From assembly GCA_963710575.1 (NCBI GenBank), contig CAVQAL010000003.1:319387-383386 (forward strand): a stretch of 64,000 nt of DNA. Direction: 5' to 3'. Below are positions 2,715-61,137 of this stretch, in pieces (position 1 is the stretch's first letter; every line of letters begins with the position of its first letter). Below the pieces are notes generated by a model. That model was given only the letters and a program-made list of their open reading frames with translations. It was not told the DNA's origin and did not search any database. Both the position numbers and the translations under genes were made by a program. This stretch comes from an uncultured delta proteobacterium (GTDB taxonomy: Bacteria > Desulfobacterota > Syntrophia > Syntrophales > Smithellaceae).

Positions 2715-3854
2715 TTATTTCAATAGTTCACGTGAAATGATTAATTTCATAATCTGGTTTGTTCCCTCGTAGATCTGGGTAATTTTTGCATCCCTCATCA
2801 TACGTTCAAAGGGATACTCTCTCATATACCCGTAACCGCCGGCAATCTGGAGTGCATCCGTTGTAATTTTCATCGCCGTGTTGGAGGCAACAAGCTTGGA
2901 CGCCGCGGAAAGATAGCTTTTGTTCGGATCATTAGCATCAATCAGCCTTGCTGCCTGATAAACGAGGCTTCTGGCCGCATCGAGTTCTGCGGCCATATCT
3001 GACAGCATCCAACCTATACCCTGGAATTGGCCGATGGGTTTTCCAAACTGAATCCTTTCTTTTGCGTATTTGATTGCAAGTTCCAGGGCGCCACGTGCAA
3101 CACCACAGGCTTGTGCAGCAATAACAGGCCGTGATGTATCGAGGGTCTGCATAGCATATACAAACCCCTTCCCTTCTATGCCAATAAGGTTTTCTTCTGG
3201 TATCTCGACATCCTCAAAAACCAGTTCTCCTGTAGGTGATCCCTTTATGCCCATCTTTTTTTCCCACTTGCCGATTGAAAATCCCGGCGATTTGGTAGGT
3301 ACAATGAAAGCGCTTATTCCTTTGACACCCTTCGATGCATCCGTCATGGCAAATACCGTGATGAGATCGGCTACCGGACCATTGGTAATGAAACATTTTG
3401 TTCCATTGATTATGTATTTATCACCTTTTTTCACCGCTCGTGTCTTCATAGCCCCGGAATCGGACCCGGCACTTGGTTCAGTCAGTCCATAAGAGATGAT
3501 AACATCTCCAGAAGCTACCATCGGACCATACTTTGCCTTCTGTTCCTCGCCGCCTCCAATCAGGATCGGCTCCCATCCCAACGCCTGACCCTGTACAATC
3601 AGTGATGAGCTGACGCAGGCCCTGGCAATCTCTTCCACGGCAAGACACGTAAACATATGTCCTTGATCGGTGCCGCCATATTTTTCCGGAACCGCCAGTC
3701 CGAGAAGCCCCATGTCTGCAAATATCTTTTTCAAATCCCAGGGAAATTCCTCTGTCTCATCGATCTCCGCGGCCCGGGGCACAACTTTATCATCAACCAT
3801 TTTCCGCAGTTGATCTACAAACAATCTCTGGTCTTTATTATCAAGCAAATACAT
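2715..3854 (-). CDS. Acyl-CoA dehydrogenase (butyryl-CoA dehydrogenase-like)
   Basis: GLTEPSAGSD, GTKCFITNG, GGYGYMREYPFERMMRDAKITQIYEGTNQI. Confidence 0.95.
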   Translation of the reverse strand: MYLLDNKDQRLFVDQLRKMVDDKVVPRAAEIDETEEFPWDLKKIFADMGLLGLAVPEKYGGTDQGHMFTCLAVEEIARACVSSSLIVQGQALGWEPILIGGGEEQKAKYGPMVASGDVIISYGLTEPSAGSDSGAMKTRAVKKGDKYIINGTKCFITNGPVADLITVFAMTDASKGVKGISAFIVPTKSPGFSIGKWEKKMGIKGSPTGELVFEDVEIPEENLIGIEGKGFVYAMQTLDTSRPVIAAQACGVARGALELAIKYAKERIQFGKPIGQFQGIGWMLSDMAAELDAARSLVYQAARLIDANDPNKSYLSAASKLVASNTAMKITTDALQIAGGYGYMREYPFERMMRDAKITQIYEGTNQIMKLIISRELLK

Positions 3855-25316: not shown

Positions 25317-26360
25317 CTACAGTTTTTTTGTTTTCTTACGAGTTGTTTTGCGCACCCGGCCCCATACCGGATGCCTCTTAGCAGCCATGCGGACGATAAG
25401 GCTGCCCATTTGTCCGTAACTGATACCGGCAACCTCGGCGGCGCACGCCATGCTGGCGTCAATGCTGATATCCGCGTTGGGATTTACATCCAGAACGTAA
25501 AAGATGTTATCCCGCAGACGGATGTCCATACGTGCGTAATCCCGGCATCCTAAAGCCACGTAGGCGTTCTTGCAAACCAGTTCCAGCGCCTCGGTTTCAT
25601 CGCTAGTCAGGGAGGCGGGCAGCAAGGTTTCGATTTTTTCATAATGCTCGGAGCCGGGAATAAATTTGGAATCATAAGTGCATAGCCGGTCTTTGACATT
25701 GCCGAAAAATGAAAAGTCCATTTCCGCGGGGGGTAACACCGTCAGTGTTTCGTTACCCCAGACGGAGACATGAAATTCACGCCCATCGATTAAATCCTCC
25801 ACCAGAGCCGGTTGGCGATATCGATCCAGAATGAAGGATATGCGCTTTTTCAATTCCGGTTGATTCAGCACTACGGCGTCCGGTGTAATACCCATGGAGC
25901 AATGTTCATTCATCGGCTTGACAATTGCCGGAAATATATTCCAGTCGCATGTTTCGGGGGAATGAAAGACACGCCAGGCCGGCGTGGGAATGAAGGCCTG
26001 ATCCATGATGACTTTTACACGGTATTTATCCTGCGCAAGGGCGAGCGTTTCAGAATCCGCGCCGGTGAAGGTAAAGCCGAGCATCTCGAGCCGTTTTGCC
26101 ACGAGCCATTCACTGTGCTCGATTCCGGGAAGGCCTTCGCACCAGTTAAAAACAATATGATCGGCAGGATCGAAGCAATCAAGATGGCTGGAGATATCGT
26201 CGTCCGCAACGGGAACAAGAACCATGGGATGTCCCATATCCATCAACGCGTGACCAAGCTGCGTGGTCAGATGGATCACTTCATCTTTTTCAACTTGCGT
26301 CCAGTCCGGATCAACACTGTAAAGTAATATAATCGGAATTTTCGCGGACTGGATGTCCAT
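25317..26360 (-). CDS. D-Ala-D-Ala-ligase-like ATP-grasp enzyme (non-canonical)
   Basis: VFNWCEG, DKYRVK, VKPMNEHCSMGI, EDLIDGREF, YARMDIR, VLDVNPN; lacks the Ddl N-terminal GGxSxE. Confidence 0.85.
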   Translation of the reverse strand: MDIQSAKIPIILLYSVDPDWTQVEKDEVIHLTTQLGHALMDMGHPMVLVPVADDDISSHLDCFDPADHIVFNWCEGLPGIEHSEWLVAKRLEMLGFTFTGADSETLALAQDKYRVKVIMDQAFIPTPAWRVFHSPETCDWNIFPAIVKPMNEHCSMGITPDAVVLNQPELKKRISFILDRYRQPALVEDLIDGREFHVSVWGNETLTVLPPAEMDFSFFGNVKDRLCTYDSKFIPGSEHYEKIETLLPASLTSDETEALELVCKNAYVALGCRDYARMDIRLRDNIFYVLDVNPNADISIDASMACAAEVAGISYGQMGSLIVRMAAKRHPVWGRVRKTTRKKTKKL

Positions 26361-47254: not shown

Positions 47255-49438
47255 TTATCCGTTCCGCCACTGAGCATATTGATACATTTTACCCAATGCC
47301 TTAACGGCTCGCTCAGGAGTAATAAAATTTACTCCTTTATATTTGCAGCCATCGACATCGGTAATTGTTCGCGATTTATCATCGTTGAGTAAATAAACCC
47401 CTATTATCGGTTTATCATATTTTTCCATTAATCTTACCGTTCGCTCGATAGATTGTTGTTCAAAATCTTCCAGGTAACGCAAATAATCTTCTACAAATTT
47501 ATAATCACGTTTTTTATCTACAAAGACAGCCGATTCCAGCGTCGCTTTTATCATTATTATTCTTCCGATAATACCCATGTGGATTATGGCATCACATTCA
47601 GGCCATTGAAGAAGTTCTTCGAGAATTGTCATATATGTCTTGGTATTCATCTCCCCGACGACATCTATCGGATTAGCATGGCTCCAAAACGGCGGCAGCA
47701 ATTTATTAATTCGAAAAATTACATCTTCTGATAATTTTGGCACCTCCAAACCATTTTCCACGCATAAATCTGAGGCGACAACACCCCAGCCTCCTCCTAA
47801 AGTCATAATGCCAACTTTTTTTCCTTTAGGCAGCGGCAAAGAGGAAAATGCCGCAGATAGATCCAGCAAGTCCATGGGGTTTTCAACCTGTACGATACCT
47901 GCTTGCCGGCACGCTGCTTTAAACACTTTTATATTAGAAGCCATCGCGCCCGTATGGCTAGCTGCTGCGTGGGCCCCTGCCTCTGTGCGCCCGCCTTTTA
48001 AGGCGATAATCGGTTTTTTCTTACCACATCGTTTTGCCGCTTCAAAAAACCTTCGGCCGTTTTTAATGCTTTCTATGTACAAAACAACTGTTTTAGTCAG
48101 CTCATCAACCTCAAATCCCTCCATAGCGTTTTCAATTGTTATCATTGCTTCATTGCCTGAACCGCCAAACGCGCGGATTCCAATGCCTTCTTTTTCAGCA
48201 AAAGCCAATAACTGCGTTCCCAAATTACCTGATTGAGTAACCAAAACTGTGCTTCCTGCTTTTGGTCTCACATGCGTTCCTGTGCAATAAAGTGAGATAT
48301 AGGGATTACATATTCCCATCGTATTGGGGCCAAAAATTAAAATTCCTGCTTCTTGCGCTTTTTCTACCAACTTATCTTCCAAGGCTTTGCCTTCCGCGCC
48401 TGTTTCGGAAAAACCAGACGAGATAAGCAATACATTTTTTATTTTCTTTTTCTTCAGTTCAGGTATTAAGGATAAAACTCTATTTGCGGGAATTGTAACA
48501 ACAGCAAGGTCAACCGGATCGGGAATTTCGGTTACTGATTTAAAAACTTTTCTATCGGCAATTTCTTCTCCTTTGGGGTTTACCAAATAGATTTTTCCCT
48601 TATATTTTCCGGCAAGAACATTAGTGAATATCAAATTCCCCCATTTGCCAACCTCTGCGGAAGCGCCAATAAATGCAATTGCTTTGGGATAGAATAAACG
48701 TCCTATTGCCTTAGGCGCTACGGCAACATGAGTTATTTTTTTTTCGGGTACTTCCCCCAAAACTATGAGGGCGTCAACCGCTGTTACTTCACCGTCGGCA
48801 GTAACTAATAATGGATTAATATCAATCTCTCTTATTTCCGGTATCTCTGTTCCAATTTTTGATAAACCCACGATTGTTTTAATCAATGCTTTTTTGTCTG
48901 CAGCTTTTTCCCCGCGAAATGCGCCAAGTAATTTCTGTGCGTGCAACTCGTCAATCATCTTTCGTGCTTCGTTATCATCAAGAGGGGCCAGATGAAAAAC
49001 AACATCTCCGACTGCTTCTGTAAAAATTCCGCCTAATCCGAACATTACTGTAGCGCCAAATTGTTCATCATGGAAAAGACCGGCAACAAACTCTCTTTTG
49101 CCTTCCAGCATCGGCTGAATTAAAAAACCCTCCAAATCACTTCCGGCCGTTTCCTTTATATATAGTGCAGCAGAGCGAACATCTTCCTTGTTTTTTAAGT
49201 TCAGCTTAACCAATCCTTTTTCTGTTTTATGCGTAAGACGAGATCCCAGCCCCTTTAAAACAATAGGATAACCTGTTTCTTGTGCTGCCCGCTCTGCTTC
49301 CTCTATCGTTTTAACGGCTTTTTCTTCTATTACCGGAATGCCATATTTTTTTAACACTTCCTTTGCTTCGGCTTCTGTTAGTGTTGCCCGCTTTTGAGAT
49401 TTTGCTTTTTCAATGATTTCTAATTTTTTCATTTCCAT
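47255..49438 (-). CDS. ADP-forming acetate/acyl-CoA ligase, fused beta(ATP-grasp)-alpha
   Basis: HKTEKGLV, DINPL, IGAS, GPNTMG, QSGN, ASHTG phospho-His. Confidence 0.9.
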   Translation of the reverse strand: MEMKKLEIIEKAKSQKRATLTEAEAKEVLKKYGIPVIEEKAVKTIEEAERAAQETGYPIVLKGLGSRLTHKTEKGLVKLNLKNKEDVRSAALYIKETAGSDLEGFLIQPMLEGKREFVAGLFHDEQFGATVMFGLGGIFTEAVGDVVFHLAPLDDNEARKMIDELHAQKLLGAFRGEKAADKKALIKTIVGLSKIGTEIPEIREIDINPLLVTADGEVTAVDALIVLGEVPEKKITHVAVAPKAIGRLFYPKAIAFIGASAEVGKWGNLIFTNVLAGKYKGKIYLVNPKGEEIADRKVFKSVTEIPDPVDLAVVTIPANRVLSLIPELKKKKIKNVLLISSGFSETGAEGKALEDKLVEKAQEAGILIFGPNTMGICNPYISLYCTGTHVRPKAGSTVLVTQSGNLGTQLLAFAEKEGIGIRAFGGSGNEAMITIENAMEGFEVDELTKTVVLYIESIKNGRRFFEAAKRCGKKKPIIALKGGRTEAGAHAAASHTGAMASNIKVFKAACRQAGIVQVENPMDLLDLSAAFSSLPLPKGKKVGIMTLGGGWGVVASDLCVENGLEVPKLSEDVIFRINKLLPPFWSHANPIDVVGEMNTKTYMTILEELLQWPECDAIIHMGIIGRIIMIKATLESAVFVDKKRDYKFVEDYLRYLEDFEQQSIERTVRLMEKYDKPIIGVYLLNDDKSRTITDVDGCKYKGVNFITPERAVKALGKMYQYAQWRNG

Positions 49439-49607
49439 CCTCTATGCAACTGCAAATTTTTTACAATTATAAGCCAAATCATTTTATTCGTATTATATCA
49501 AAGGCTTATACAAATACCGACTGTTATTCTAAATAATTAATCATTAATAGATGTTTGAACCTTTATTATAATTCTTGCATCTTTAAACTTTTGCCATTTA
49601 TGAAATA

Positions 49608-50219
49608 TCATCTTGATTCCTTGTCACCCAGAGGCGCGACTACTTTCCAGAAAAAATCAAAAAAATTGTTTATTGTTTCTGCTAGTTTCCATTTCATTCC
49701 ATGGACATACCAGTTTTGTATGTGCCTGTGCATAATCATTATATAAAGATCGGCAAAATAATTATTTTCTATATCCGAAATAACCGCGCCTCTTTTTTTG
49801 GCCTTTGCAACTATCCCGTTCAATATATCTATTTCTGTTTCCCTTTTATAAGACTTGTTCGCCATAAAGCTTTTCAATGGAACTGTAATAAAAGCCGTAA
49901 TGGCAAGTTCAGGATTGTCGTCGAAAAAATTCATTGTAACCCAGAATAACTTTCTGAACATCTCGCGTATATCCTCGGTGCCCGCAAGATGCATTCGCAA
50001 CAATGATGCAAGATCGCGCAATTTTTCGTCAATTATTGAAAAAAGAAGATCTTCTTTTGATGAAAAATACTTGTATATGGTTCCCGTGCTGATTCCACTT
50101 TCTTTTGAAATATCGCGTATATTGACGGCATGGAAATCTTTCAGAGAAAATTGCCGCAACACAACGGGATATAGGCGTTCTTTTAATTTTTCAGGAATTA
50201 TAGGTTTTGCTGTCGCCAT
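49608..50219 (-). CDS. TetR/AcrR-family transcriptional regulator
   Basis: NIRDISKESGISTGTIYKYFSSKEDL. Confidence 0.92.
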   Translation of the reverse strand: MATAKPIIPEKLKERLYPVVLRQFSLKDFHAVNIRDISKESGISTGTIYKYFSSKEDLLFSIIDEKLRDLASLLRMHLAGTEDIREMFRKLFWVTMNFFDDNPELAITAFITVPLKSFMANKSYKRETEIDILNGIVAKAKKRGAVISDIENNYFADLYIMIMHRHIQNWYVHGMKWKLAETINNFFDFFWKVVAPLGDKESR

Positions 50220-50436
50220 ATTACCTTTAATCTTCTTTTTTTCTATGAAAGCAAAATATGAAACATTGTTTTAAATGTCAAGTGATAATTGAAACGTTGT
50301 TTTATTAATTACAAATAACATTATGATATCTATACCTTACATTGAAAGTTTCCATATAAAGCCTTTATAAAAATATTTTTTGTTCTTGACGAAATCCTCA
50401 TCCATCAATAAATTAAGATAAATAATATTTCTTAAT

Positions 50437-50946
50437 TTGACAAATATGACTGACGATAAAATAAAACAAATTATGATTGATGGCCGAATGGTTGGTATTG
50501 CAGGTTTAGACGATGCGATAAAAAAAATAAATTTGTCGGAAAACAGTGAAGAAGAAATTAAAAAGAATTTACTTAAAGAAATTTCTGCCAATAACTATGT
50601 GCCATCTTCTGCGCGCGATGCATACGGCAAGGCACTTTTCATGGAATTCCAGATAGCGCAGGGGCTGGCTGTTACTGACGAACCGGTCCTCGGATTGAAT
50701 ATATTTATTTTGGGAATGGCGTGTGCACGTTGCGGTCAACTGGAAATCGATATCCGGAATTTATTATCAGAGATGAAAATCGCTGCCAACTTACAACACG
50801 TTACCGATTTAAAAGAGATAGAGCGCTATAAACTTTTAGACTCGCCGGCACTTGTAATCAATAATAAGGTTGTCTGTGTCGGCGAAGTGCCTCCGAAAAG
50901 TAAAATCCGTGAATGGATTATAGAAGCTTACACTACCAATCAATAA
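50437..50946 (+). CDS. Thioredoxin-fold redox protein (MTH895-like C-terminus)
   Basis: ILGMACARC, SPALVINNKVVCVGEVP. Confidence 0.75.
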   Translation: MTNMTDDKIKQIMIDGRMVGIAGLDDAIKKINLSENSEEEIKKNLLKEISANNYVPSSARDAYGKALFMEFQIAQGLAVTDEPVLGLNIFILGMACARCGQLEIDIRNLLSEMKIAANLQHVTDLKEIERYKLLDSPALVINNKVVCVGEVPPKSKIREWIIEAYTTNQ

Positions 50947-50966
50947 TTTTTCAATTATCATTTGGG

Positions 50967-51740
50967 TTATTTTTGACAATCGGGACAGTAAAAAGTACTT
51001 CTTCCTCCCTGTTTTATTCGGCAAATAGTGCCGCCGCAAATTGAACAGCGCTTTCCCTCCTGCCCATAGGCTTTTAATTCGTGCTGGTTTTCGCCTTGGC
51101 GACCGTACAAATCTCTCCAGTCGGAAATTGACGTGCCCCTTTTTTTAATTGCCATCTTTAATATGGCTTTTGCCTGACGAAAGATTTTTTTCCAGCCATC
51201 TTGCGTCAGAGTCGCCGCTACCTGTTCGGGATGAATACCGGTTCGATGTAAAATCTCACACGCATAAATGTTACCTATTCCCTCCACGGCTTTTTGATCC
51301 ATAATAAGCGATTTAACTTTTGTCCGGCGGCTTCCATGATTTTTCAGGAAAGTGTTAAGATCAAATGTTTTCAAAATATCTTTCGCGGATTCGCTTTCCA
51401 CATTTTTTACTACTTTGATTGTTGCAAAGCGGCGCGGATCGATAAGAAAGACGTTCCCATCAGCAAAAGCCATTTTCCAACGACTATGTTTCGGCCTTGC
51501 CGAACCATTCTGCCAAAAAAGTCTCCCCGTCATGCGCAGATGTATTAACACGAAATTTCCATCTTCAAGCACAATGGATACTATTTTGCCCCGGCGTTCG
51601 ACCGCCGTGACGCTTCTTCCTTTAAGATTTTTGACAGCGGCCAGTTTATCGTCGTATACTGCGGTGGCTAATATTTTTTTGCCACAAATCTTGTCTTGCA
51701 GTTGGCGGCTTAGAGTTTCTACCTCGGGCAATTCAGGCAT
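50967..51740 (-). CDS. mutM: Formamidopyrimidine-DNA glycosylase
   Basis: MPELPEVET, HLRMTG, GIGNIYACE, C-terminal zinc finger ..GGRSTFYCPDCQ. Confidence 0.95.
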   Translation of the reverse strand: MPELPEVETLSRQLQDKICGKKILATAVYDDKLAAVKNLKGRSVTAVERRGKIVSIVLEDGNFVLIHLRMTGRLFWQNGSARPKHSRWKMAFADGNVFLIDPRRFATIKVVKNVESESAKDILKTFDLNTFLKNHGSRRTKVKSLIMDQKAVEGIGNIYACEILHRTGIHPEQVAATLTQDGWKKIFRQAKAILKMAIKKRGTSISDWRDLYGRQGENQHELKAYGQEGKRCSICGGTICRIKQGGRSTFYCPDCQK

Positions 51741-52265
51741 TGGCTTTCTCCATTTCTATCAGCACACGGGTCTCTTCTGTTTCTATTGTTACTAAAAAAT
51801 TATTTTTTTGCCTACTTTTTTTTCCCGTTATGACCAACATACCCCGAGCTTTCAATAAATGCGATCAAGTCACCAGACGATCTACATCGAAACATAATTT
51901 CGCATCGACGGACCTTTCCATCCATTTTTCAAAAAGGATTTATGTCTCCTTTGAAACATTCCACGGCAGCGTCCATCCTGCGCTGATATAGGTTCCATGG
52001 GCATTTGCGAGACAGCGGATATTTCATATTGTGCTTGATATAGTAATCTGATTTGCATATTAGGCGGTCATAAATAATCAAGGAACGGTCGAAATAATTA
52101 TTCCCGAGGCAAACTCCTTCAAAAAATATTTTAATTTTTTTTTACAAAAATGCAAAAAAGTGTTGACAAATATTTCTGTATGAGTACATTCGATAATTAA
52201 GTGTTTGTAATTTTTTATTGCAACATAATTTCACGGGAGGGAAACCTGCCAAAAGGAGGAACAAA

Positions 52266-53573
52266 ATGGAAAGCGAGACCCTGTTTACTGAGGAGGAGGA
52301 ACCTCCTGGTCCATTGACCGGTCTTGTTAATGCTAAAAATAATGTAAGTGACTTTTTGTTATTCAAAGAAGATGTCTCTCATTACCCGATTAAACAAAAG
52401 TCAGATAGCGTTTTATTTCCTTTTAAAGATTCCGCCCGCTCCCGCATTTTCCGAACACGAAATTATCCCGAAATTACACGCCTGGAATGGTTTGACTGGC
52501 ACTGGCAAATGCGTAACGCCATTAGGGAGGTTGATGCTCTGTCTCAAATAATCAATCTTTCGGACAATGAACGCCAGGCAATGATGCATCATGCAGGTGC
52601 ATTGCCCGTTTCCATTACGCCTTATTATGCAAGTCTGCTTAATCCCAATGATCCTGCTGATCCTTTGCGCCGTTGCGTTGTTCCTGTGGTCGATGAATGT
52701 CTCCATACTGCCGGAGAAGAGGAAGATCCTCTCTGCGAAGATGTCGATTCTCCGGTGCCGGGCATTATTCATCGCTACCCTGACCGCGTGCTGTTTCTTG
52801 TAACCGACAGTTGTTCCACCTATTGCCGTTATTGCACCCGGTCCCGCATTATTGAACGGAGCAAGCACCATTTGATAAACTTGGAAAAATGGGAAAAGGC
52901 TATTCAATACATTGCCAACAATAAAAATATCAGGGACGTACTGCTTTCCGGCGGCGATCCTTTAACCCTTTCCGATGAAAAACTGGAATGGTTGTTAACG
53001 CGGCTGCACAAGATCCGTCATGTCGAAATTATACGAATCGGCACTAAAGTGCCAGTTGTTATGCCCCAGAGAATAACACCGGCTCTGACAGCCCTGCTGA
53101 AAAGATATCATCCTTTATGGATGAGCATTCATATAACTCATCCGAAAGAACTGACACCGGAGATGAGCGCCGCCTGCATTCGTCTGGCCGACGCCGGCAT
53201 TCCGTTGGGAAGCCAGACCGTGCTGCTTTCCGATATCAATGATGATGTTGTTACCATGACCAGATTGGTGCATGGCCAACTGCAAATCAGAGTTCGTCCT
53301 TATTATCTGTATCAGTGCGATCCCATCCCGGGCTCTTCTCATTTCCGGACACCGGTAAACAAGGGCATTGAAATTATTCAGGGCATGCGTGGACATACTA
53401 CCGGTTACGCTGTGCCTACTTATGTTGTTGACGCGCCCGGCGGTGGCGGCAAAATTCCTTTGCTTCCCGAATACGCCATGGGATGGGAAAATGGCGATTT
53501 AATTCTGCGTAACTATGAAGGCAATACTTTCCGCTACCCCGACAATCACGCAAAATCGAAGGATATACATTAA
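52266..53573 (+). CDS. kamA: KamA-family radical SAM/PLP aminomutase (lysine 2,3-aminomutase type)
   Basis: HRYPDRVL, CSTYCRYC, LSGGDPL, YLYQCD, VVDAPGGGGK. Confidence 0.9.
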   Translation: MESETLFTEEEEPPGPLTGLVNAKNNVSDFLLFKEDVSHYPIKQKSDSVLFPFKDSARSRIFRTRNYPEITRLEWFDWHWQMRNAIREVDALSQIINLSDNERQAMMHHAGALPVSITPYYASLLNPNDPADPLRRCVVPVVDECLHTAGEEEDPLCEDVDSPVPGIIHRYPDRVLFLVTDSCSTYCRYCTRSRIIERSKHHLINLEKWEKAIQYIANNKNIRDVLLSGGDPLTLSDEKLEWLLTRLHKIRHVEIIRIGTKVPVVMPQRITPALTALLKRYHPLWMSIHITHPKELTPEMSAACIRLADAGIPLGSQTVLLSDINDDVVTMTRLVHGQLQIRVRPYYLYQCDPIPGSSHFRTPVNKGIEIIQGMRGHTTGYAVPTYVVDAPGGGGKIPLLPEYAMGWENGDLILRNYEGNTFRYPDNHAKSKDIH

Positions 53574-53588
53574 ACTGGCAGAAATTTA

Positions 53589-54629
53589 TTGCAGGGGGTA
53601 GATAATTTAACCGTGAGTCGTGTCGGTAAAAAATTGATAATTGGCATAACCTACGATTTACGCGATGATTATTTGAAAGAAGGATATAGTCTCGAAGAAA
53701 CGGCGGAATTCGATCTTCCCGATACAATTGCAGCTATTGAAAAGGTAATTTTAGATAACGGTTTTCTTGCTGATCGAATTGGCAATGTAAAAGCATTAAC
53801 TCGCCGGCTTGCGGCAGGCAATAGCTGGGATCTTGTTTTTAATATTACCGAAGGCATGTATGGTTTTGGCCGTGAAGCGCAAGTTCCCGCTTTATTGGAC
53901 GCATATAACATCCCCTATACCTTTTCCGATCCCCTTGGTCACACCATCTCCCTCCACAAGGGAATAACCAAGCATGTTCTGCGCGATCTGGGAATACCCA
54001 CACCCGATTTTGCCGTCGTTAACAGTGACGCGGAAATTGATAAAGTTAATCTTCCGTTTCCTCTTTTTGCCAAACCGGTAGCGGAAGGAACAAGCAAAGG
54101 CATAACGGCGCTGTCCAAGATAACTAACCGTGCAGAATTGTCTCAGACCTGCAAACATATTTTACAGACATTTAAGCAGCCTGCGCTGATCGAAACATAT
54201 CTTCCCGGCCGCGAATTTACCGTCGGCATATTAGGTTCCGGAAAAGATGCGAAAGTACTTGGAGCAATAGAAGTGATTTTAAAGCCGACTGCGGAGCAAA
54301 ATGCTTATTCCTATGAAAACAAGGAACATTATGAAAATCTTGTCCAATACGTACTGGTTGATGATGACGAAGCCAGGCAAGCCAGCGAAATAGCCCTTAA
54401 AGCATGGCGTTATTTGGATTTAAAAGATGCCGGACGTGTGGATTTGCGCTCTGATGCTCATGGAACGCCGCATTTCATAGAAGTTAATTCTCTTGCCGGA
54501 CTAAACCCTAAGCGCTCGGACTTGCCCATCCTCTGTAATTTGCTGGGCGTGAGCTATCATGTATTGATCGGCAAAATTATTGAATCGGCCCTGCGGCGCG
54601 CTAAGATAACCAACAAAACGTTAAACTAA
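53589..54629 (+). CDS. D-Ala-D-Ala-ligase-like ATP-grasp enzyme A
   Basis: VFNITEG, FAKPVAEGTSKGI, ETYLPGREF, RVD, IEVN; non-Ddl acidic N-terminus. Confidence 0.88.
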   Translation: MQGVDNLTVSRVGKKLIIGITYDLRDDYLKEGYSLEETAEFDLPDTIAAIEKVILDNGFLADRIGNVKALTRRLAAGNSWDLVFNITEGMYGFGREAQVPALLDAYNIPYTFSDPLGHTISLHKGITKHVLRDLGIPTPDFAVVNSDAEIDKVNLPFPLFAKPVAEGTSKGITALSKITNRAELSQTCKHILQTFKQPALIETYLPGREFTVGILGSGKDAKVLGAIEVILKPTAEQNAYSYENKEHYENLVQYVLVDDDEARQASEIALKAWRYLDLKDAGRVDLRSDAHGTPHFIEVNSLAGLNPKRSDLPILCNLLGVSYHVLIGKIIESALRRAKITNKTLN

Positions 54630-54639
54630 GTCTGTTCAA

Positions 54640-55641
54640 ATGCGGGAAAGCTTAATGATGAAAAAAGTTGTAATTTTACACAGCGATGTTTCTCCCGATG
54701 CCACAGAGGATGAACTTGATTGTCTCCAGCAAGCCCAGGCAATCTCTCAGGCCTTGCGTCAGCTGAATTACAAACCTATTCTTTTGCCGTTTGGCCTTGA
54801 TTTAAATCAGGCAATAATAAAATTGAAATCATTAAAACCGCTGGCCGTTTTTAATATTGTGGAAACTCTGGCATCCAGAGGCAGTTTGATCTATTTTGCT
54901 CCGGCCATCCTCGATACTTTGCAGATTCCTTATACCGGCTGCGCCACGCAAGCCGTGTTTCAAACATCGAATAAATCTCTGGCCAAAAAAATCATGCGCG
55001 ATGCCGGTATCGCTACTCCGGATTGGATAACACATGATGGTTTGGGTTCCCAAAAAGATACTGCCAGGAAATATTTAATCAAGTCGTCCTGGGAACATGC
55101 TTCCATCGGCCTTGATGAAAATGCTCTTATCAACCATACAAATAAAGCCAGGATACTAAAAGAAATGAACCGCCGTAAAGAAAAGCTTGGCGGCACCTGT
55201 TACGCCGAAGCCTATATTGATGGCCGCGAATTTAATGTCGCCCTCATATCCGACACAAATAGCGTTAAAGTATTGCCGGTCTCTGAAATGTTATTTCAGG
55301 ATTATGCTCCGGAAAAACTAAAAATCGTTGATTACAAAGCCAAATGGGACACGGATTCCTTTGAGTACAATAATACGATACGAAAATTTGATTTTCCCCA
55401 AAAAGATGCTAATCTAATATCGGCTTTGCGTAACATTGCCTTGCGTTGCTGGAATCTTTTCTCTTTGCGCGGGTACGCGCGCGTTGATTTTCGCGTCGAC
55501 AATAACGGCAAGCCATGGGTACTGGAAATAAATTCTAACCCCTGTTTATCGCCGGACGCCGGTTTTGCCGCCGCTCTTCAACAGGCAAAAATTAAATATC
55601 ACGAAGCCATCGGTTTGATAATCGATAATGCGATGAAATAA
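54640..55641 (+). CDS. D-Ala-D-Ala-ligase-like ATP-grasp enzyme B
   Basis: VFNIVE, IKSSWEHASIG, EAYIDGREF, YARVDFR, LEINSNP. Confidence 0.88.
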   Translation: MRESLMMKKVVILHSDVSPDATEDELDCLQQAQAISQALRQLNYKPILLPFGLDLNQAIIKLKSLKPLAVFNIVETLASRGSLIYFAPAILDTLQIPYTGCATQAVFQTSNKSLAKKIMRDAGIATPDWITHDGLGSQKDTARKYLIKSSWEHASIGLDENALINHTNKARILKEMNRRKEKLGGTCYAEAYIDGREFNVALISDTNSVKVLPVSEMLFQDYAPEKLKIVDYKAKWDTDSFEYNNTIRKFDFPQKDANLISALRNIALRCWNLFSLRGYARVDFRVDNNGKPWVLEINSNPCLSPDAGFAAALQQAKIKYHEAIGLIIDNAMK

Positions 55642-55666
55642 TGTTATAGCAAACTGGATTGTTTTT

Positions 55667-56149
55667 ATGAATGATTTTATCTATCGTCAGCATATACAGC
55701 ATTCCGATATCGGAGCCATTGCCGATATTGTAAAATCCAGCGGATTTTTTTCCGTCGAGGAAATAGATATCGCGCTGGAACTGGCGGAAGAAAAGCTCAC
55801 ACAGCCCCATGACAGCTCTTACCAGTTTTTATTTGCCGAAGATAAACAACACGTTGTTGGTTATACCTGCTTCGGCCTTATCCCGGCAACGTCCGGCAGT
55901 TACGATCTATACTGGATTGCTATCGATCAGCAATTACGAGGCACTGGCCTGGGCAAAGACTTAATGAAGAGAACAGAAAAAATTATTTACGATTTGGGCG
56001 GCAAACGAATTTACGCGGAAACATCTTCCCGTCACCAGTATCAACCCACGCATGGTTTTTATGAGAGTTGCGGATATCGAAAAGAAGCTGTCTTAAAAGA
56101 TTTTTATACGGAAGGCGACAGCAAAATTATATACGTCAAAACTCTTTAA
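55667..56149 (+). CDS. GNAT-family N-acetyltransferase
   Basis: LYWIAIDQQLRGTGLG, FYESCGY. Confidence 0.9.
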   Translation: MNDFIYRQHIQHSDIGAIADIVKSSGFFSVEEIDIALELAEEKLTQPHDSSYQFLFAEDKQHVVGYTCFGLIPATSGSYDLYWIAIDQQLRGTGLGKDLMKRTEKIIYDLGGKRIYAETSSRHQYQPTHGFYESCGYRKEAVLKDFYTEGDSKIIYVKTL

Positions 56150-56169
56150 TAACATACCATACGCCCACA

Positions 56170-56211
56170 AAGCAGGGGTATCCTGCCTTTAAAACCGCTT
56201 GCTTTTTTTTT
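56170..56211 (+). terminator. Probable terminator closing the kamA operon
   Basis: Imperfect aagcaggggt/accgcttgctt stem followed by T9. Confidence 0.5.
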
Positions 56212-56284
56212 CATAATTCGCTAGAGGACTGCCAGTATTTACTAACTTTTTGTACGCTATAAAGGAAAGAAGGAGGATTTATTG

Positions 56285-56905
56285 ATGCGCTTGTTTCCTA
56301 AAACAGATAATTTTTTTGAACTTTTTGATGAGCTGGCCGACAAAATTGAAGAAGGCGGCAAGCTTTTTCTGGAAATGGCTCAAACTCGTGATTTTTCTGA
56401 GGAGAGAGTCGCCAAGCTCAAGGAAATTGAACACGAAGCCGACGGCATTACCCATAAAACATATGAAAAGATGCACAAGACTTTCCTAACGCCTATTGAC
56501 CGTGAAGACATTTACGCTCTTGTCAATAAAATGGACAGCATTCTGGATGTCATTGAAGCCACTGCCGTCCGCGTTCATCTTTATAAAGTCAAAAAGCCGG
56601 CGGATGAAATAATCAAGCAAGCGCAAATATTGAGTGACGCAATAAAAAAAGTCAAAAGCATTATTCAGGCGATGCGCAACATGAAAAACTCCGAAATGAT
56701 TCTAGCCGGTTGCGTGGAAATCAACACACTGGAAAATGCCGGCGATATTGTCTTAAGAACTATCATGGCCAATCTTTTTGAAAACGAAAAAGACGCTATC
56801 GAACTTATAAAATGGAAAGATATTTTTCAGCTCTTGGAAGAAGCAATTGATGTTTGTGAAGATGTTTCCAATATCGTGGAAGGAATTGTCCTGAAACATG
56901 CTTAA
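56285..56905 (+). CDS. DUF47/PhoU-like phosphate transport regulator
   Basis: EHEADGIT..FLTPIDREDI, ENAGD; coupled to pit. Confidence 0.88.
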   Translation: MRLFPKTDNFFELFDELADKIEEGGKLFLEMAQTRDFSEERVAKLKEIEHEADGITHKTYEKMHKTFLTPIDREDIYALVNKMDSILDVIEATAVRVHLYKVKKPADEIIKQAQILSDAIKKVKSIIQAMRNMKNSEMILAGCVEINTLENAGDIVLRTIMANLFENEKDAIELIKWKDIFQLLEEAIDVCEDVSNIVEGIVLKHA

Positions 56906-57899
56906 TTCTATGGCGTTTGTCATTTTTCTTGTTCTTGTCGCACTGGTTTTTGATTTTCTTAACGGTTTTCACGATTCAGCTAATTCCATTTCTACCGTTG
57001 TTTCCACCCGTGTTCTTTCGCCAAAATATGCGGTGGTCTGGGCGGCTTTTTTTAATTTTGCCGCCGTATTTTTTGTGGGTACAGCGGTCGCACATACTAT
57101 TGGCAAGGGAATCATTCATATTGACATTGTCGATAATCTGGTGATTCTATCTGCATTAGGCGGCGCGATCATCTGGAATATTGCGACTTGGTATTACGGC
57201 CTACCCAGCAGTTCTTCACATGCCTTAATCGGCGGTCTTATCGGCGCGGCTGTATCCAAAGCCGGAACAAGCACATTAGTCTGGTCGGGCATTACCAAAA
57301 CAACTGTTTTTATCATTGTTTCCCCTGCTATAGGCATGGTGCTCGGTTTTACTTTTATGGTTATTACTATGAATCTGAGCCATAATTCCAATATGGCCAA
57401 ATCCGATAAACTCTTTCGTAAACTCCAGCTTTTTTCCGCAGCAGTTTATTCATTGGCACATGGCATGAATGACGCGCAAAAAACGATGGGTATTATCGCT
57501 ATGGCTCTTTTCAGCAAAGGCTTGCTGGGTAAAACATTTTATATTCCCATTTGGGTGATTATCGCCTGTTACTCGATGATTTCTCTAGGAACCATGTTCG
57601 GCGGCTGGCGGATTGTCAAAACTATGGGAACTAAAATTACCAAGCTTCGCCCCATGGGTGGTTTTAGCGCGGAAGCTGCAGCGGCCTGTTCAATCATCGG
57701 TGCAACAATAGCCGGAATTCCCGTGAGCACAACCCACACGATCACCGGAGCTATCGTCGGCGTCGGCGCTACCAAAAGACTTTCTTCCGTGCGCTGGGGA
57801 GTTGCCGGAAACATCATCTGGGCATGGCTTTTAACAATACCCGTTTCCGCCGCCATTTCTGCCGTCATTTATCTTTCTATAGAATACTTTGCACGTTAA
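56898..57899 (+). CDS. pit: Inorganic phosphate transporter, PiT family
   Basis: NGFHDSAN, HGMNDAQK, PVSTTH. Confidence 0.93.
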   Translation: MLNSMAFVIFLVLVALVFDFLNGFHDSANSISTVVSTRVLSPKYAVVWAAFFNFAAVFFVGTAVAHTIGKGIIHIDIVDNLVILSALGGAIIWNIATWYYGLPSSSSHALIGGLIGAAVSKAGTSTLVWSGITKTTVFIIVSPAIGMVLGFTFMVITMNLSHNSNMAKSDKLFRKLQLFSAAVYSLAHGMNDAQKTMGIIAMALFSKGLLGKTFYIPIWVIIACYSMISLGTMFGGWRIVKTMGTKITKLRPMGGFSAEAAAACSIIGATIAGIPVSTTHTITGAIVGVGATKRLSSVRWGVAGNIIWAWLLTIPVSAAISAVIYLSIEYFAR

Positions 57900-58003
57900 T
57901 TTATCTGCTTCTTCCTCAAAATAATATTGATAATTTTTATTTTTTACCGTAAATTCATTCTATCATTATATGCCACTTTCATACTCTAATGAGGGAGAAT
58001 TTT

Positions 58004-59269
58004 ATGCCGGAAAAACCATTGCCTTTTACGAAAAATCAAATTGAAAAAATCATAAAACAATATCCGACGCCTTTTCACCTTTATGATGAAAAATCCATTC
58101 GGGAAAACGCACGCGCTTTTAAAAACTCCTTCGCCTGGAATGAAGGTTTTAAAGAATTCTTTGCCGTCAAAGCCGCTCCCAATCCCTACCTGATAAAAAT
58201 CCTGCACAAGGAAGGCTTCGGCGCTGATTGCAGCTCGCTGGCGGAACTGATTATGGCGCAAAAAACGGGAATCACCGGAAAAGAAATCATGTTTTCTTCC
58301 AACGACACACCCGTGGAAGAATTTCTTCTGGCAAAAAAATTGAAAGCCAATATCAATCTGGATGATATCAGCCATATTGAATATCTGGAAAAATGCGCCG
58401 GACTACCTTCCTTGATTTGCTTCCGCTACAATCCCGGCCGGTTGAAAAAAGGAAATTTCATTATCGGCCATCCCGAGGAGGCGAAATACGGCTTCACTCG
58501 AGAACAACTTTTTGAAGGCTATAAAATTTGCAAAGACAAAGGCGTCAAACGATTCGGCATTCATACCATGGTCGCTTCCAATGAACTCGATGCCCATTAC
58601 TTTGAAGAAACAGCGGAAATATTATTTAAACTGATTGCGGAAATTTCACAAAAGCTAAAAATCAAATTTGAATTTGTTAATATCGGCGGGGGAGTGGGTA
58701 TACCTTACCAGCCGGAACAAAAACGCATAGACTTAAAAGCAATGAGCCGCGGCATCAAGAAAAAATACGACGAAATCATTGTTGCCAACGACCTTGCCCC
58801 CCTTAAGCTTTTTACGGAATGCGGCCGCTACATTACCGGCCCTTACGGCTATCTGGTTTCCCGCGTCCTGCATATTAAAAACACTTATAAGAAATTTGCT
58901 GGTCTGGATTCCTGTATGGCCAATTTGATGCGCCCCGCGCTTTACGGCGCTTATCATCACATCACTGTTGTGGGCAAGGAAAGCAAACCTCATGATTTTA
59001 GCTATGATGTAACGGGATCTCTTTGTGAAAACAACGATAAATTCGCCATTGACCGCGCTTTACCCAAACTGGAAAGAGGCGATATTGTTGTTATTCATGA
59101 TGCCGGCGCGCATGGCTTCGCCATGGGCTTCAATTATAACGGCAAACTCCGCTCGGCGGAATTGCTTTTACGAGAAAACGACGAAGTTGTACAAATCCGT
59201 CGCGCCGAAACAGTAAAAGATTATTTCTCTACTTTAGATTTCAACAAATTGGCAAATTTTCAGGTGTAA
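58004..59269 (+). CDS. lysA: Diaminopimelate decarboxylase
   Basis: FAVKA PLP lysine, NIGGG, ECGRY, GSLCENND, GAHGFAMG. Confidence 0.9.
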   Translation: MPEKPLPFTKNQIEKIIKQYPTPFHLYDEKSIRENARAFKNSFAWNEGFKEFFAVKAAPNPYLIKILHKEGFGADCSSLAELIMAQKTGITGKEIMFSSNDTPVEEFLLAKKLKANINLDDISHIEYLEKCAGLPSLICFRYNPGRLKKGNFIIGHPEEAKYGFTREQLFEGYKICKDKGVKRFGIHTMVASNELDAHYFEETAEILFKLIAEISQKLKIKFEFVNIGGGVGIPYQPEQKRIDLKAMSRGIKKKYDEIIVANDLAPLKLFTECGRYITGPYGYLVSRVLHIKNTYKKFAGLDSCMANLMRPALYGAYHHITVVGKESKPHDFSYDVTGSLCENNDKFAIDRALPKLERGDIVVIHDAGAHGFAMGFNYNGKLRSAELLLRENDEVVQIRRAETVKDYFSTLDFNKLANFQV

Positions 59270-59439
59270 GGCTAAGGATGAAGTTATCGTACACACTGCT
59301 TCCGGTAGTCTTCAAATCGTCAATTTCAACAAAAATACAACATTTCAATCAATAATCAATGATGTTGTGTATTTTTCTTTTAAAAAAAAAATGAATAGTG
59401 CTATTATTATATTCAATAAAAAAGAATAGGAGGCGGATT

Positions 59440-59604
59440 ATGGAATATAAGATTATTTCTAGTAGTGCATGGTCAGTGGACGCTGCAGTTAATATATTAG
59501 AAAAAAAGGTTAATAATTTAATAAAAGAAGGATGGGAACCTGTAGGTGGTGTTATGATAGTTGCTTTCAATGACCATGTCTACCAATCACTTATAAAAAG
59601 ATAG
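59440..59604 (+). CDS. Small DUF1737-like protein
   Basis: LEKKVNNLIKEGWEPVGGV..YQSL; GGAGG RBS. Confidence 0.65.
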   Translation: MEYKIISSSAWSVDAAVNILEKKVNNLIKEGWEPVGGVMIVAFNDHVYQSLIKR

Positions 59605-59626
59605 ACAGCCTGTAATAAGGGATAAT

Positions 59627-59654
59627 CGAAGTTCGGATATTAATTGTTCGGATA
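59627..59654 (+). other. Second attI-like motif
   Basis: cgaagttcggatattaattGTTCGGA. Confidence 0.45.
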
Positions 59655-59707
59655 ACAAGAATTGGTGTCGAATAGGCTGGAAAAGATTACGGCCGGAGGA
59701 AAAGATT

Positions 59708-60106
59708 ATGAACAAAGTCGTAGCACGGTTTGCTGATGGTAACCTGATCAAGGGCACGACAACCGACTTCTTTTCGGAGGTAGAGGTTTTTCATGTGAGC
59801 ATGTTGGACGCACCAGCCGAGGAAAAGCCTTGCGAAATCTACACGAGGAATTTGAAAGCGCTGTTCTTTGTTAAGGACTTCCTAGGTGATCCGCATTACG
59901 TCAATCGAAACGAATTCGATCCAAACCGTCCTACGATCGGGCTGAAAATAAGGGTGGAGTTCAAGGACGGCGAAGTTCTTGTGGGAACCACAACAGAATA
60001 CCACCCCGGACGTTCTGGGTTCTTCATCTTGCCGGCGGATACTAATACAAACAATGAGCTTTGTTATGTAGTCGTAGAAGCCACTAAAGAGATTAGAGTA
60101 CTGTGA
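59708..60106 (+). CDS. Hypothetical protein with internal duplication (DUF6982-like)
   Basis: KVVARFADGNLIKGTTTDF / KIRVEFKDGEVLVGTTTEY. Confidence 0.7.
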   Translation: MNKVVARFADGNLIKGTTTDFFSEVEVFHVSMLDAPAEEKPCEIYTRNLKALFFVKDFLGDPHYVNRNEFDPNRPTIGLKIRVEFKDGEVLVGTTTEYHPGRSGFFILPADTNTNNELCYVVVEATKEIRVL

Positions 60107-60330
60107 CCTGAATAGCAGCAACGGACGCTGATTCTTACTCTCTTTCAATTGGTAATCTTCAGTTTTCCGGCTTCATAAATCTATTGGTTTATCGGTGTAA
60201 CCAACGAGCAAACTTTGACAATTTTCTTCTCAAAAATATCGACAAGAAATCTTGCTATATTCTGATTAGTTATGATAAACGTCTTCGCAGTAGTAACCTT
60301 ATATAAATATTTTAAAGTAGAATATAACTC

Positions 60331-61137
60331 GTGCATAAAAAAGCAAATCGTTTCATAGGTGTCTTCGATTCCGGTATTGGCGGCCTGACGGTCGTCCGTT
60401 CTTTAATGGAACGTCTGCCTTTTGAAAACATCATTTATTTTGGCGATACAGCGCGCGTGCCCTATGGCATTAAATCGGTGGAAACAATCAACCGCTACGC
60501 GGCGCAAATTACTGAATTTCTTATCAAGAAAGACGTAAAACTATTGATTGTCGCGTGCAACACTATGGCGGCTGTCGCTTATCAGACAATTGTTGATTTA
60601 TCGCCGGTGCCTGTGCTGGAAGTAATTGACGCCAGCGCGCGCATCGCTATCCAGCATACCAAGACAACATCAATTGGAGTCATCGGAACACCCGCAACTA
60701 TCAATAGTAACGCTTACGCCCGGTCTATTCATCTTTTGGATAAGGAAGCGAAGGTTTTTTCGCAAGCCTGTCCCCTTTTTGTGCCGCTGGTGGAAGAAGG
60801 ATGGTTCGATCATCCGGCAACAAAGCTTGTCGCTCAAGAATATTTAAAGCCGGTTATTGCCGAACAAATTGACACGCTGGTTCTGGGCTGTACCCATTAT
60901 CCGCTTTTAAAACCATTGCTGCAGGATATTCTGGGGAAAGGAGTAAAGCTCATTGATTCGGCGGAAGCTATGGCCGATATCACCGCCGATTTGATTAACA
61001 CACAAAACATGGGCAATCAAAATTGTTCGCCGCCGGATTATACTTTTTATGTAAGCGATTTACCTTATCGCTTTCAAACGATCGGTGAACGTTTTCTGGG
61101 ACGCACGCTCGGCCGTGTTGAGTTGGTGAGCCTTTAA
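60331..61137 (+). CDS. murI: Glutamate racemase
   Basis: FDSGIGG, GDTARVPYG, ACNT, LGCTHY. Confidence 0.96.
   Translation: MHKKANRFIGVFDSGIGGLTVVRSLMERLPFENIIYFGDTARVPYGIKSVETINRYAAQITEFLIKKDVKLLIVACNTMAAVAYQTIVDLSPVPVLEVIDASARIAIQHTKTTSIGVIGTPATINSNAYARSIHLLDKEAKVFSQACPLFVPLVEEGWFDHPATKLVAQEYLKPVIAEQIDTLVLGCTHYPLLKPLLQDILGKGVKLIDSAEAMADITADLINTQNMGNQNCSPPDYTFYVSDLPYRFQTIGERFLGRTLGRVELVSL

Follow-up and report, generated by a model that had tools for sequence, protein, structure and literature searches.

The 64,000-nucleotide stretch of DNA analysed here (the window) comes from the genome of an uncultured member of the Smithellaceae, 3.05 Mb in size and 92% complete; the window's closest homologues carry the name Smithella. 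Between positions 52266 and 56149 it carries four co-oriented genes on the + strand, encoding a KamA-type lysine 2,3-aminomutase, two ATP-grasp ligases with the fold of D-alanine–D-alanine ligase (Ddl), called Lig1 and Lig2 here, and a small GNAT N-acetyltransferase. These four genes are one copy of a widespread, self-contained biosynthetic cassette, and we give about an even chance to the reading that its predicted product is a cytoplasmic N-acetylated β-lysine di- or tri-amide made by KamA, Lig1, Lig2 and the GNAT. An earlier note on this DNA had proposed that the aminomutase feeds two non-Ddl ligases and an acetyltransferase, giving a product other than N-ε-acetyl-β-lysine. That proposal now finds support in the conservation of the four genes, in their natural fusions, in the residues of the enzymes, in the absence of AblB, in the presence of a true Ddl elsewhere and in RNA contigs across each gene junction.

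A species-representative genome collection was scanned with the Lig2 family alignment; at least 600 stretches matched, 571 of which encode a Lig2 relative, and the locus counts given throughout rest on the best 80 Lig2 loci among the matches listed. The earlier note had suggested a survey of the four-gene order, and across phyla this order (KamA-Lig1-Lig2-GNAT, all on one strand) is seen in 48 of the 80 loci, most of the others being cut by contig ends. Recurring so often among related loci, the arrangement lies far beyond chance. Where at least 3 kb is available on both sides, as for 50 loci, all four genes are found in 40. The record titles of the 80 loci carry about 15 phylum-level labels, the groups named being Smithella, Syntrophales, Desulfobacterales, Desulfovibrionaceae, Planctomycetes, Phycisphaerae, Bacteroidota, Spirochaetota, Acidobacteria, Verrucomicrobia, Kiritimatiellia, Lentisphaerae, Anaerolinea, Dependentiae, Patescibacteria and others. 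Closer to home, within the window's class, 112 of the 151 sampled genomes carry a Lig2 orthologue, and these represent 42 of 53 genera; in its own genus, all 18 genomes sampled do so, the window's own included; four of the weak Lig2 matches in the class, at 36% identity, were checked, and all four belong to complete cassettes. In the class Syntrophia, then, the cassette has the distribution of a near-core trait passed on vertically. As a separate observation, the Lig2 gene is split in two or contains a stop codon in some related genomes (G035, G087 and G101, of the same order, and G010, G012 and G112); pseudogenes, errors of sequencing or genuinely divided genes may lie behind this.

Relatives of Lig2 form more than 1000 clusters at E < 1e-30, fusions among them. 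The 50%-identity representatives include Lig1-Lig2 fusion proteins of 640–730 aa and Lig2-GNAT fusion proteins of 490–550 aa, the latter kind being found in at least 10 of the 80 loci. Lig1, the better conserved of the two ligases, usually adjoins KamA, and the median identities to the window in distant loci (KamA 58%, Lig1 55%, Lig2 45%, GNAT 47%) imply that the Lig2 and GNAT half evolves faster. We inspected four genomes in which Lig2-GNAT lacks an adjacent Lig1, KamA or both, and a KamA orthologue is still present in all four: L016 and L028 carry it at another place in the genome, one of them directly beside Lig1, while in L026 and L081 it stands directly upstream of Lig2. The cassette on this evidence divides into two sub-modules, KamA with Lig1 and Lig2 with the GNAT.

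KamA (52266–53573, +, 435 aa), a radical S-adenosylmethionine and pyridoxal phosphate (PLP) enzyme with TIGR00238, LAM_C and Radical_SAM matches, aligns to lysine 2,3-aminomutase from Clostridium subterminale (2A5H) at E = 2.5e-133 and an identity in the 60% range. In lysine 2,3-aminomutase the substrate's ε-ammonium group is bound by D293 and D330, positions at which glutamate 2,3-aminomutases have Lys/Asn. By hand count on the alignment these two aspartates correspond to D352 (in the motif YQCD) and D389 (in VVDAP) of KamA, so the earlier note was right that both acidic side-chain residues are kept; K396 (in GGGGK) aligns with the PLP-binding lysine K337, and the Fe-S motif CxxxCxxC reads CSTYCRYC at residues 183–190. 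The Fe-S cysteines, the PLP lysine and both aspartates are invariant in all 56 cassette aminomutases compared. Because both lysine-specifying aspartates are invariant, whereas glutamate 2,3-aminomutases carry Lys/Asn, a basic substrate is indicated, which would most simply be L-lysine. Among family models, KamA scores 355.6 bits against TIGR00238 (cut-off 199.2); its best-scoring model is AblA, with the glutamate, arginine and EpmB models much lower (260 bits for the EpmB equivalog, cut-off 369).

Lig1 (53589–54629, +; 346 aa, or 338 aa from a GTG at 53613) and Lig2 (54640–55641, +; 333 aa, or 328 aa from an ATG at 54655) both contain the Pfam domain Dala_Dala_lig_C, and Ddl enzymes are their only solved relatives (E = 2e-22 and 3.5e-12, respectively). 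An AlphaFold2 model of Lig1 (predicted local distance difference test score, pLDDT, 90.1; predicted template-modelling score, pTM, 0.88) finds Ddl-type enzymes in all of its top 50 PDB matches (D-Ala:D-Ala ligases and one D-Ala:D-lactate ligase), with template-modelling (TM) scores of 0.76–0.83, while the Ddl-type assignment of Lig2 is by sequence only. Against the NCBIfam Ddl models, on the other hand, Lig1 reaches at most 151.5 bits and Lig2 at most 109.6, versus a cut-off of 243.

Residue maps built from family alignments of 61 Lig1 and 67 Lig2 sequences, numbered after E. coli DdlB, show which parts of the Ddl machinery are retained. Every Lig1 and Lig2 sequence has K97, K144, E180, K215, R255, D257 and N272. 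In Lig1 the same holds for E187 and E270, which in Lig2 are kept in 66 and 65, respectively, of the 67 sequences, the exceptions being Asp. With the ATP, Mg and transition-state residues thus conserved, both ligases should be active. The substrate site is altered in a family-specific way. In Lig1, H63E, E68R and L282D are invariant and Y216E is found in most sequences, with S281 kept and S150 replaced by T; in Lig2, Y216W and G276C are invariant and L282G occurs in 66 of 67 sequences, with Ala or Ser at S281, A in place of S150 and a variable residue at the H63 position. The earlier note had pointed to acidic N-termini and to altered omega loops (AYSYENKE and IVDYKAKW), all of which are present, and had stated that both ligases lack the GGxSxE site of Ddl. 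The last statement needs to be qualified: the glycine-rich loop is indeed replaced by acidic segments in both enzymes, but the position of Ddl E15 is still matched in the alignments by an acidic residue, namely E40 of Lig1 (in one alignment) and D24 of Lig2 (in the family alignment). Together with the conserved replacements at the D-Ala sites and the scores far below the Ddl cut-offs, the presence of a true Ddl on another contig (456 bits, cut-off 262) supports the view that neither Lig1 nor Lig2 is an ordinary Ddl.

The genome holds four Ddl-fold genes in all: Lig1, Lig2, the true Ddl and a further Ddl-like ATP-grasp paralogue that also lies in the window, at 25317–26360 on the – strand. This last protein, of 347 aa, is nearest to the Lig2 type (~31% identity) and far below the Ddl cut-offs. 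Its gene stands alone, downstream of an aspartate-semialdehyde-dehydrogenase-like gene and beside a macro-domain protein.

The GNAT (55667–56149, +; 160 aa; Pfam Acetyltransf_1) matches PDB entry 2R7H over its full length at E = 1.1e-36, and this is its sole close solved relative. 2R7H is a functionally uncharacterised structural-genomics entry named "putative D-alanine N-acetyltransferase", for which a literature search retrieved no functional study. The motif RGTGLG of the GNAT fits an acetyl-CoA loop. The protein does not match the AblB model TIGR03827, and the best score that any protein of the genome attains against that model is 18.6 bits, versus a cut-off of 205.

A further clue to the substrate comes from a protein that the window does not have. 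In 25 of the 80 loci (~30%), a protein of ~600 aa with a GNAT-like N-terminus and an HDAC domain is encoded between Lig2 and the GNAT. The HDAC domain is nearest to acetylpolyamine amidohydrolases (E = 1.6e-70 to 9GKZ), a clade that deacetylates acetylputrescine, acetylcadaverine and acetylspermine (PMC11532494). What this match suggests as substrate is a small molecule ending in an N-acetyl-aminoalkyl group, which might for example be an N-ε-acetyl-β-lysyl group, rather than a protein.

Clustering of all open reading frames (ORFs) in the 80 loci, in which ORF picking was crude for high-GC loci, found only two shared genes beyond the core ones: that for the deacetylase fusion and that for a CxxCxxCC metal-binding protein, which is inserted after KamA in 9 loci, mostly planctomycete where named. 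Among the neighbours in these loci there is no conserved transporter, exporter, immunity gene, regulator or mobility gene, nor is a carrier protein, Mur ligase or conserved target gene linked to the cassette. A search for precursor peptides found no small ORF conserved across the cassette loci. A graspetide- or microviridin-type cluster for a ribosomally synthesised and post-translationally modified peptide was considered and rejected: there is no precursor-peptide gene, and the ligases match Ddl models, not RimK-type ones. We did note a recurrent ORF of ~80 aa, matched by no Pfam family and placed some hundreds of bases upstream of KamA on the same strand, in 6 of the 80 loci (L011, at 2868–3113, L012, L017, L024, L036 and L055; titles Syntrophus, Deltaproteobacteria, Acidobacteria or simply "bacterium"); the window does not contain it.

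The four genes of the window form a single operon, as judged from the short gaps between them, from a single conserved promoter with a ribosome-binding site and from the RNA of close relatives. The earlier note's reading of four tightly spaced, co-oriented genes holds, all ORFs being in place with gaps of 15, 10 and 25 bp. It had also given the operon its own promoter, and a sigma-70-like sequence, TTGACA-16 nt-TACATT, lies at 52163–52190 on the + strand (10 of 12 matches in a promoter scan), followed by a ribosome-binding site, AGGAGG, at 52254–52259 (+), 6 nt 5' of the ATG at 52266; the latter is a sequence reading and is kept in related Smithella loci. Four other Smithella loci have the promoter block at ~52140–52195 with hardly a change, whereas the remainder of the 525-bp spacer is less constant. 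The 5' untranslated region of the operon would measure ~70 nt, and a search for regulatory RNAs gave no Rfam match at E <= 1 within 49000–61000. An imperfect palindrome, TGTATGAGTACA (52177–52188), which shares the conservation of the promoter block, overlaps the -10 hexamer and is a possible operator for a regulator.

No public sequencing run contains the strain itself (at most 10% of words), and the expression data are contigs from four wetland RNA libraries belonging to close relatives at 85–95% identity. These cover all four genes and span every junction: that of KamA and Lig1 (contigs 53421–53620 and 53375–53597), that of Lig1 and Lig2 (54410–54702) and that of Lig2 and the GNAT (55510–55713). 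The relatives' contigs start at ~52225–52249, downstream of the promoter. Since every gene junction is spanned, the data support the view that close relatives co-transcribe the four genes in situ, in wetlands and peat. Less can be said for the closing terminator of the earlier note. The hairpin and the T9 run after it do exist (56169–56211, +), but the hairpin is weak (-10.8 kcal/mol, z = -0.98), was not reported by a terminator scan and is crossed by one RNA contig from a relative, which runs from the GNAT gene to the start of a DUF47 gene (56039–56289). This contig suggests either read-through into the DUF47-PiT genes or DNA carry-over.

Taken together, these observations allow a pathway to be proposed. 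KamA would convert free L-lysine to β-lysine (3,6-diaminohexanoate). Lig1 and Lig2 would then form one amide bond each by way of an acyl-phosphate, at least one of these bonds involving β-lysine. Because the cassette carries no further biosynthetic gene, the other amide partners would be ordinary cell metabolites, and because no transporter is conserved around it, the product would be cytoplasmic. A free amine would be capped by the GNAT with an acetyl group from acetyl-CoA, and in ~30% of cassettes the acetyl group could be removed again by the fused GNAT/acetylpolyamine-amidohydrolase-type enzyme. The most specific guess that we can offer is that Lig1 joins two basic amino acids, β-lysine with β-lysine or lysine. 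The acidic residues that stand, in a conserved way, in place of those at the donor and acceptor sites of Ddl would suit Lig1 to a basic donor and to an acceptor that is basic and bears a carboxylate, while Lig2, with an apparently roomier acceptor pocket, may extend or conjugate the Lig1 product. Of the products that the earlier note had listed, an acetylated β-lysyl di- or tripeptide is the one favoured here, and an antimetabolite or a modification of peptidoglycan or protein appears less likely. The lysine fermentation pathway combines kamA with kamDE, kdd, kce and kal. No gene for β-lysine 5,6-aminomutase (kamDE) occurs in any of the 80 loci; its model PF09043 has no match in the genome, but also none in 14 control genomes.

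Several observations weigh against the acetylated β-lysine amide. All the enzymatic steps are inferred from the sequences, and the product is predicted. KamA itself falls below the cut-off of the AblA equivalog TIGR03820 (497.4 versus 525.4 bits). The C. subterminale enzyme has a zinc site made up of C268 and C-terminal cysteines, and this zinc-cysteine region is not found in KamA, in which C268 aligns with an Asp and the chain ends ~40 residues past GGGGK with no Cys cluster. Donor and acceptor sites in the ligases are assigned from the alignment to E. coli DdlB, which is ambiguous in its N-terminal part. In an AlphaFold2 model of a natural Lig1-Lig2 fusion the two halves fold well, but their orientation is not fixed (pTM 0.53, with a disordered 19-residue linker at 337–355), so that no confident inter-domain arrangement emerges and the model lends no support to a heterodimer. 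Beyond 2R7H, the nearest named relatives of the GNAT are N-terminal protein acetyltransferases (RimI and archaeal Nat), making a peptide or protein substrate possible, and no GNAT is detectable nearby in six of the 50 loci that have both flanks. Finally, the RNA contigs come from relatives rather than from this strain, and the RNA libraries may contain carried-over DNA.

How, then, do other readings of the same genes compare with an acetylated di- or tri-amide? The best placed, although unlikely, is that one or both ligases work iteratively and build an oligo-β-lysine or a β-lysyl-polyamine conjugate. The GNAT, together with the deacetylase in loci that have it, would turn the charge of this product on and off, and the product could be a nitrogen reserve or a counter-ion of the polyamine kind. 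The acidic replacements of Lig1 (H63E and L282D in all sequences, Y216E in most) suit a basic donor and a basic acceptor under this reading as well, the accessory deacetylase is of the acetylpolyamine-amidohydrolase type, and the cassette is near-core in its lineage and comes without an exporter. The carboxynorspermidine decarboxylase gene nspC, moreover, is found in only five of the 151 class genomes, three of which have no cassette. Such a role is less easily squared with spermidine-synthase-like (speE-like) genes, with which there is no clean complementarity, the cassette being present in about half of the genomes that have a good speE-like match; nor is any degrading peptidase linked to it, and sequences do not tell an iterative ligase from a single-turnover one. 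Framed more broadly, as an unrecognised class of organic polycation (an oligo-β-lysine or a β-lysyl amide conjugate) with its charge switched by N-acetylation and, where the fused deacetylase is present, by deacetylation, the idea is a possibility worth keeping in view, though we would not bet on it. If true, the polycation would belong to the near-core metabolites of the syntrophic Syntrophia and would also occur in bacteria under ~15 phylum-level labels, serving as polyamine-like counter-ion or nitrogen reserve. On the subject of polyamines, many Syntrophia genomes contain ORFs, many of ~730 aa and some of up to ~1290 aa, with a partial spermidine-synthase-like domain that scores well below the speE cut-off (e.g. 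G000:C7:156947-157426).

It is quite improbable that the cassette modifies a macromolecule, with β-lysine placed on a protein, in the manner of RimK/TTL/LysX or of the β-lysylation of elongation factor P (EF-P), or on a peptidoglycan precursor, and the GNAT acetylating the modified site. The kinship of the GNAT with RimI and the archaeal N-terminal acetyltransferases would favour such a modification, as would weak local matches of Lig2 to TTL and sugar-transfer ATP-grasp models, and the ligases do have the Ddl fold. The aminomutase, for its part, is of the type that acts on free lysine and not an EpmB (260 bits versus 369); no carrier protein, Mur ligase, conserved target gene or conserved small ORF is linked; the genome has its own true Ddl; and the accessory deacetylase belongs to the polyamine clade, not to one of protein deacetylases. 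Very improbable, in turn, is an exported bioactive compound, that is, a β-lysine antimetabolite or antibiotic made by enzymes of the L-amino-acid-ligase type, for which acetylation would be self-protection. A compact cassette found in many phyla would be in keeping with such a role, pairs of ATP-grasp ligases are known to assemble antibiotics that are small peptides, rhizocticin (RizA/RizB) for example, and streptothricin resistance has N-acetylation of β-lysine as a known step. Near-core inheritance in a class of syntrophs (112 of 151 genomes), the absence of any conserved exporter, immunity gene, regulator or mobility gene around the cassette and its transcription in situ in wetlands and peat all argue the other way. 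Plain acetyl-β-lysine, with the two ligases serving an unrelated function such as that of a spare Ddl, is hardly probable at all: KamA and an acetyltransferase suffice for the known pathway, according to a passage in PMC3543383 that cites Pfluger et al. 2003, but the GNAT does not match AblB and the genome has no AblB, in other genomes the ligases occur as fusions with one another and with the GNAT, the four genes are conserved together, and the ligase scores are far below the Ddl cut-offs.

The genes on either side of the operon do not belong to the cassette. Downstream, at 56282–59269, lie genes for a DUF47 (PhoU-like) protein, a PiT phosphate transporter and lysA, an order seen again in some Smithella and Syntrophales loci only. 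The earlier note had suggested that lysA could supply the precursor, and a dedicated role of this kind has to be rejected: lysA (57989–59269; 301 bits, cut-off 298) is the only lysA above the family cut-off in the genome, and its linkage to the cassette is confined to four to five Smithella/Syntrophales loci and absent from the closely related L009. Its position beside the cassette is housekeeping synteny. Upstream, the stretch 47255–51740 encodes on the opposite strand a 727-aa protein like ADP-forming acetyl-CoA synthetase, a TetR-like regulator and an Fpg/MutM-like glycosylase (by sequence reading), and on the + strand a protein whose C-terminal domain is MTH895/ArsE thioredoxin-like (Pfam/NCBIfam); outside Smithella, none of these is conserved with the cassette.

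In the literature that could be searched, which did not include Iyer et al. 2009 (PMC3268129), where a prediction would most likely stand, we found no description of an aminomutase with two Ddl-like ligases and a GNAT, and within that literature the combination of β-lysine chemistry with ATP-grasp amide ligases is not yet described. The cassette implies a further widespread β-lysine metabolite made without a non-ribosomal peptide synthetase (NRPS) or ribosome. Its carriers include most members of a class of syntrophs by which methanogenic carbon turnover is driven, and in wetlands and peat the cassette is transcribed. The identity of the product would give functions to two large families that are annotated "D-alanine--D-alanine ligase", would assign roles to the 2R7H-type GNAT and to the large family of GNAT-deacetylase fusions, and might reveal a new solute, polycation or cofactor in anaerobes.

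The closest known systems share some of these components. The AblA/AblB pathway to N-ε-acetyl-β-lysine (in methanogens and some bacteria; KamA/YodP in Bacillus) likewise places a lysine 2,3-aminomutase with the same aspartates in an operon with an acetyl-CoA-dependent GNAT. In the cassette, by contrast, the GNAT is a 160-aa protein of the 2R7H type that has no TIGR03827 match, the two ATP-grasp ligases are integral, and the aminomutase scores just under the AblA cut-off. EpmB and EpmA, which β-lysylate EF-P, resemble the cassette in that a KamA-family aminomutase makes β-lysine for ligation; they differ in that the cassette KamA stays well short of the EpmB cut-off and in that the ligating enzymes of the cassette are ATP-grasp proteins and not a LysRS paralogue. 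For the accessory deacetylase domain, the counterparts are the bacterial acetylpolyamine amidohydrolases (cluster 4 of PMC11532494; 9GKZ, 6PHR and 3Q9B), which it matches at E = 1e-64 to 1e-70, whereas in the cassette this domain is fused to an N-terminal GNAT-like domain and set among β-lysine genes.

With Ddl, Lig1 and Lig2 share a three-domain fold (measured by TM score for Lig1) and the same ATP, Mg and acyl-phosphate residues, while their D-Ala1 and D-Ala2 residues are replaced family by family and no cell-wall genes lie nearby. The paired L-amino-acid ligases RizA and RizB offer a precedent for two sequential ligases building a tri-amide. In the synthesis of N-acetylglutaminylglutamine amide (NAGGN) by Sinorhizobium and Pseudomonas, Ngg (a GNAT fused to an ATP-grasp ligase) acts with AsnO. 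As in the cassette, a GNAT and an ATP-grasp ligase, sometimes fused, there give a cytoplasmic N-acetylated dipeptide with neither NRPS nor ribosome; unlike the NAGGN system, the cassette draws on another ATP-grasp clade, has no amidotransferase, and brings two ligases together with a dedicated aminomutase for a β-amino acid.

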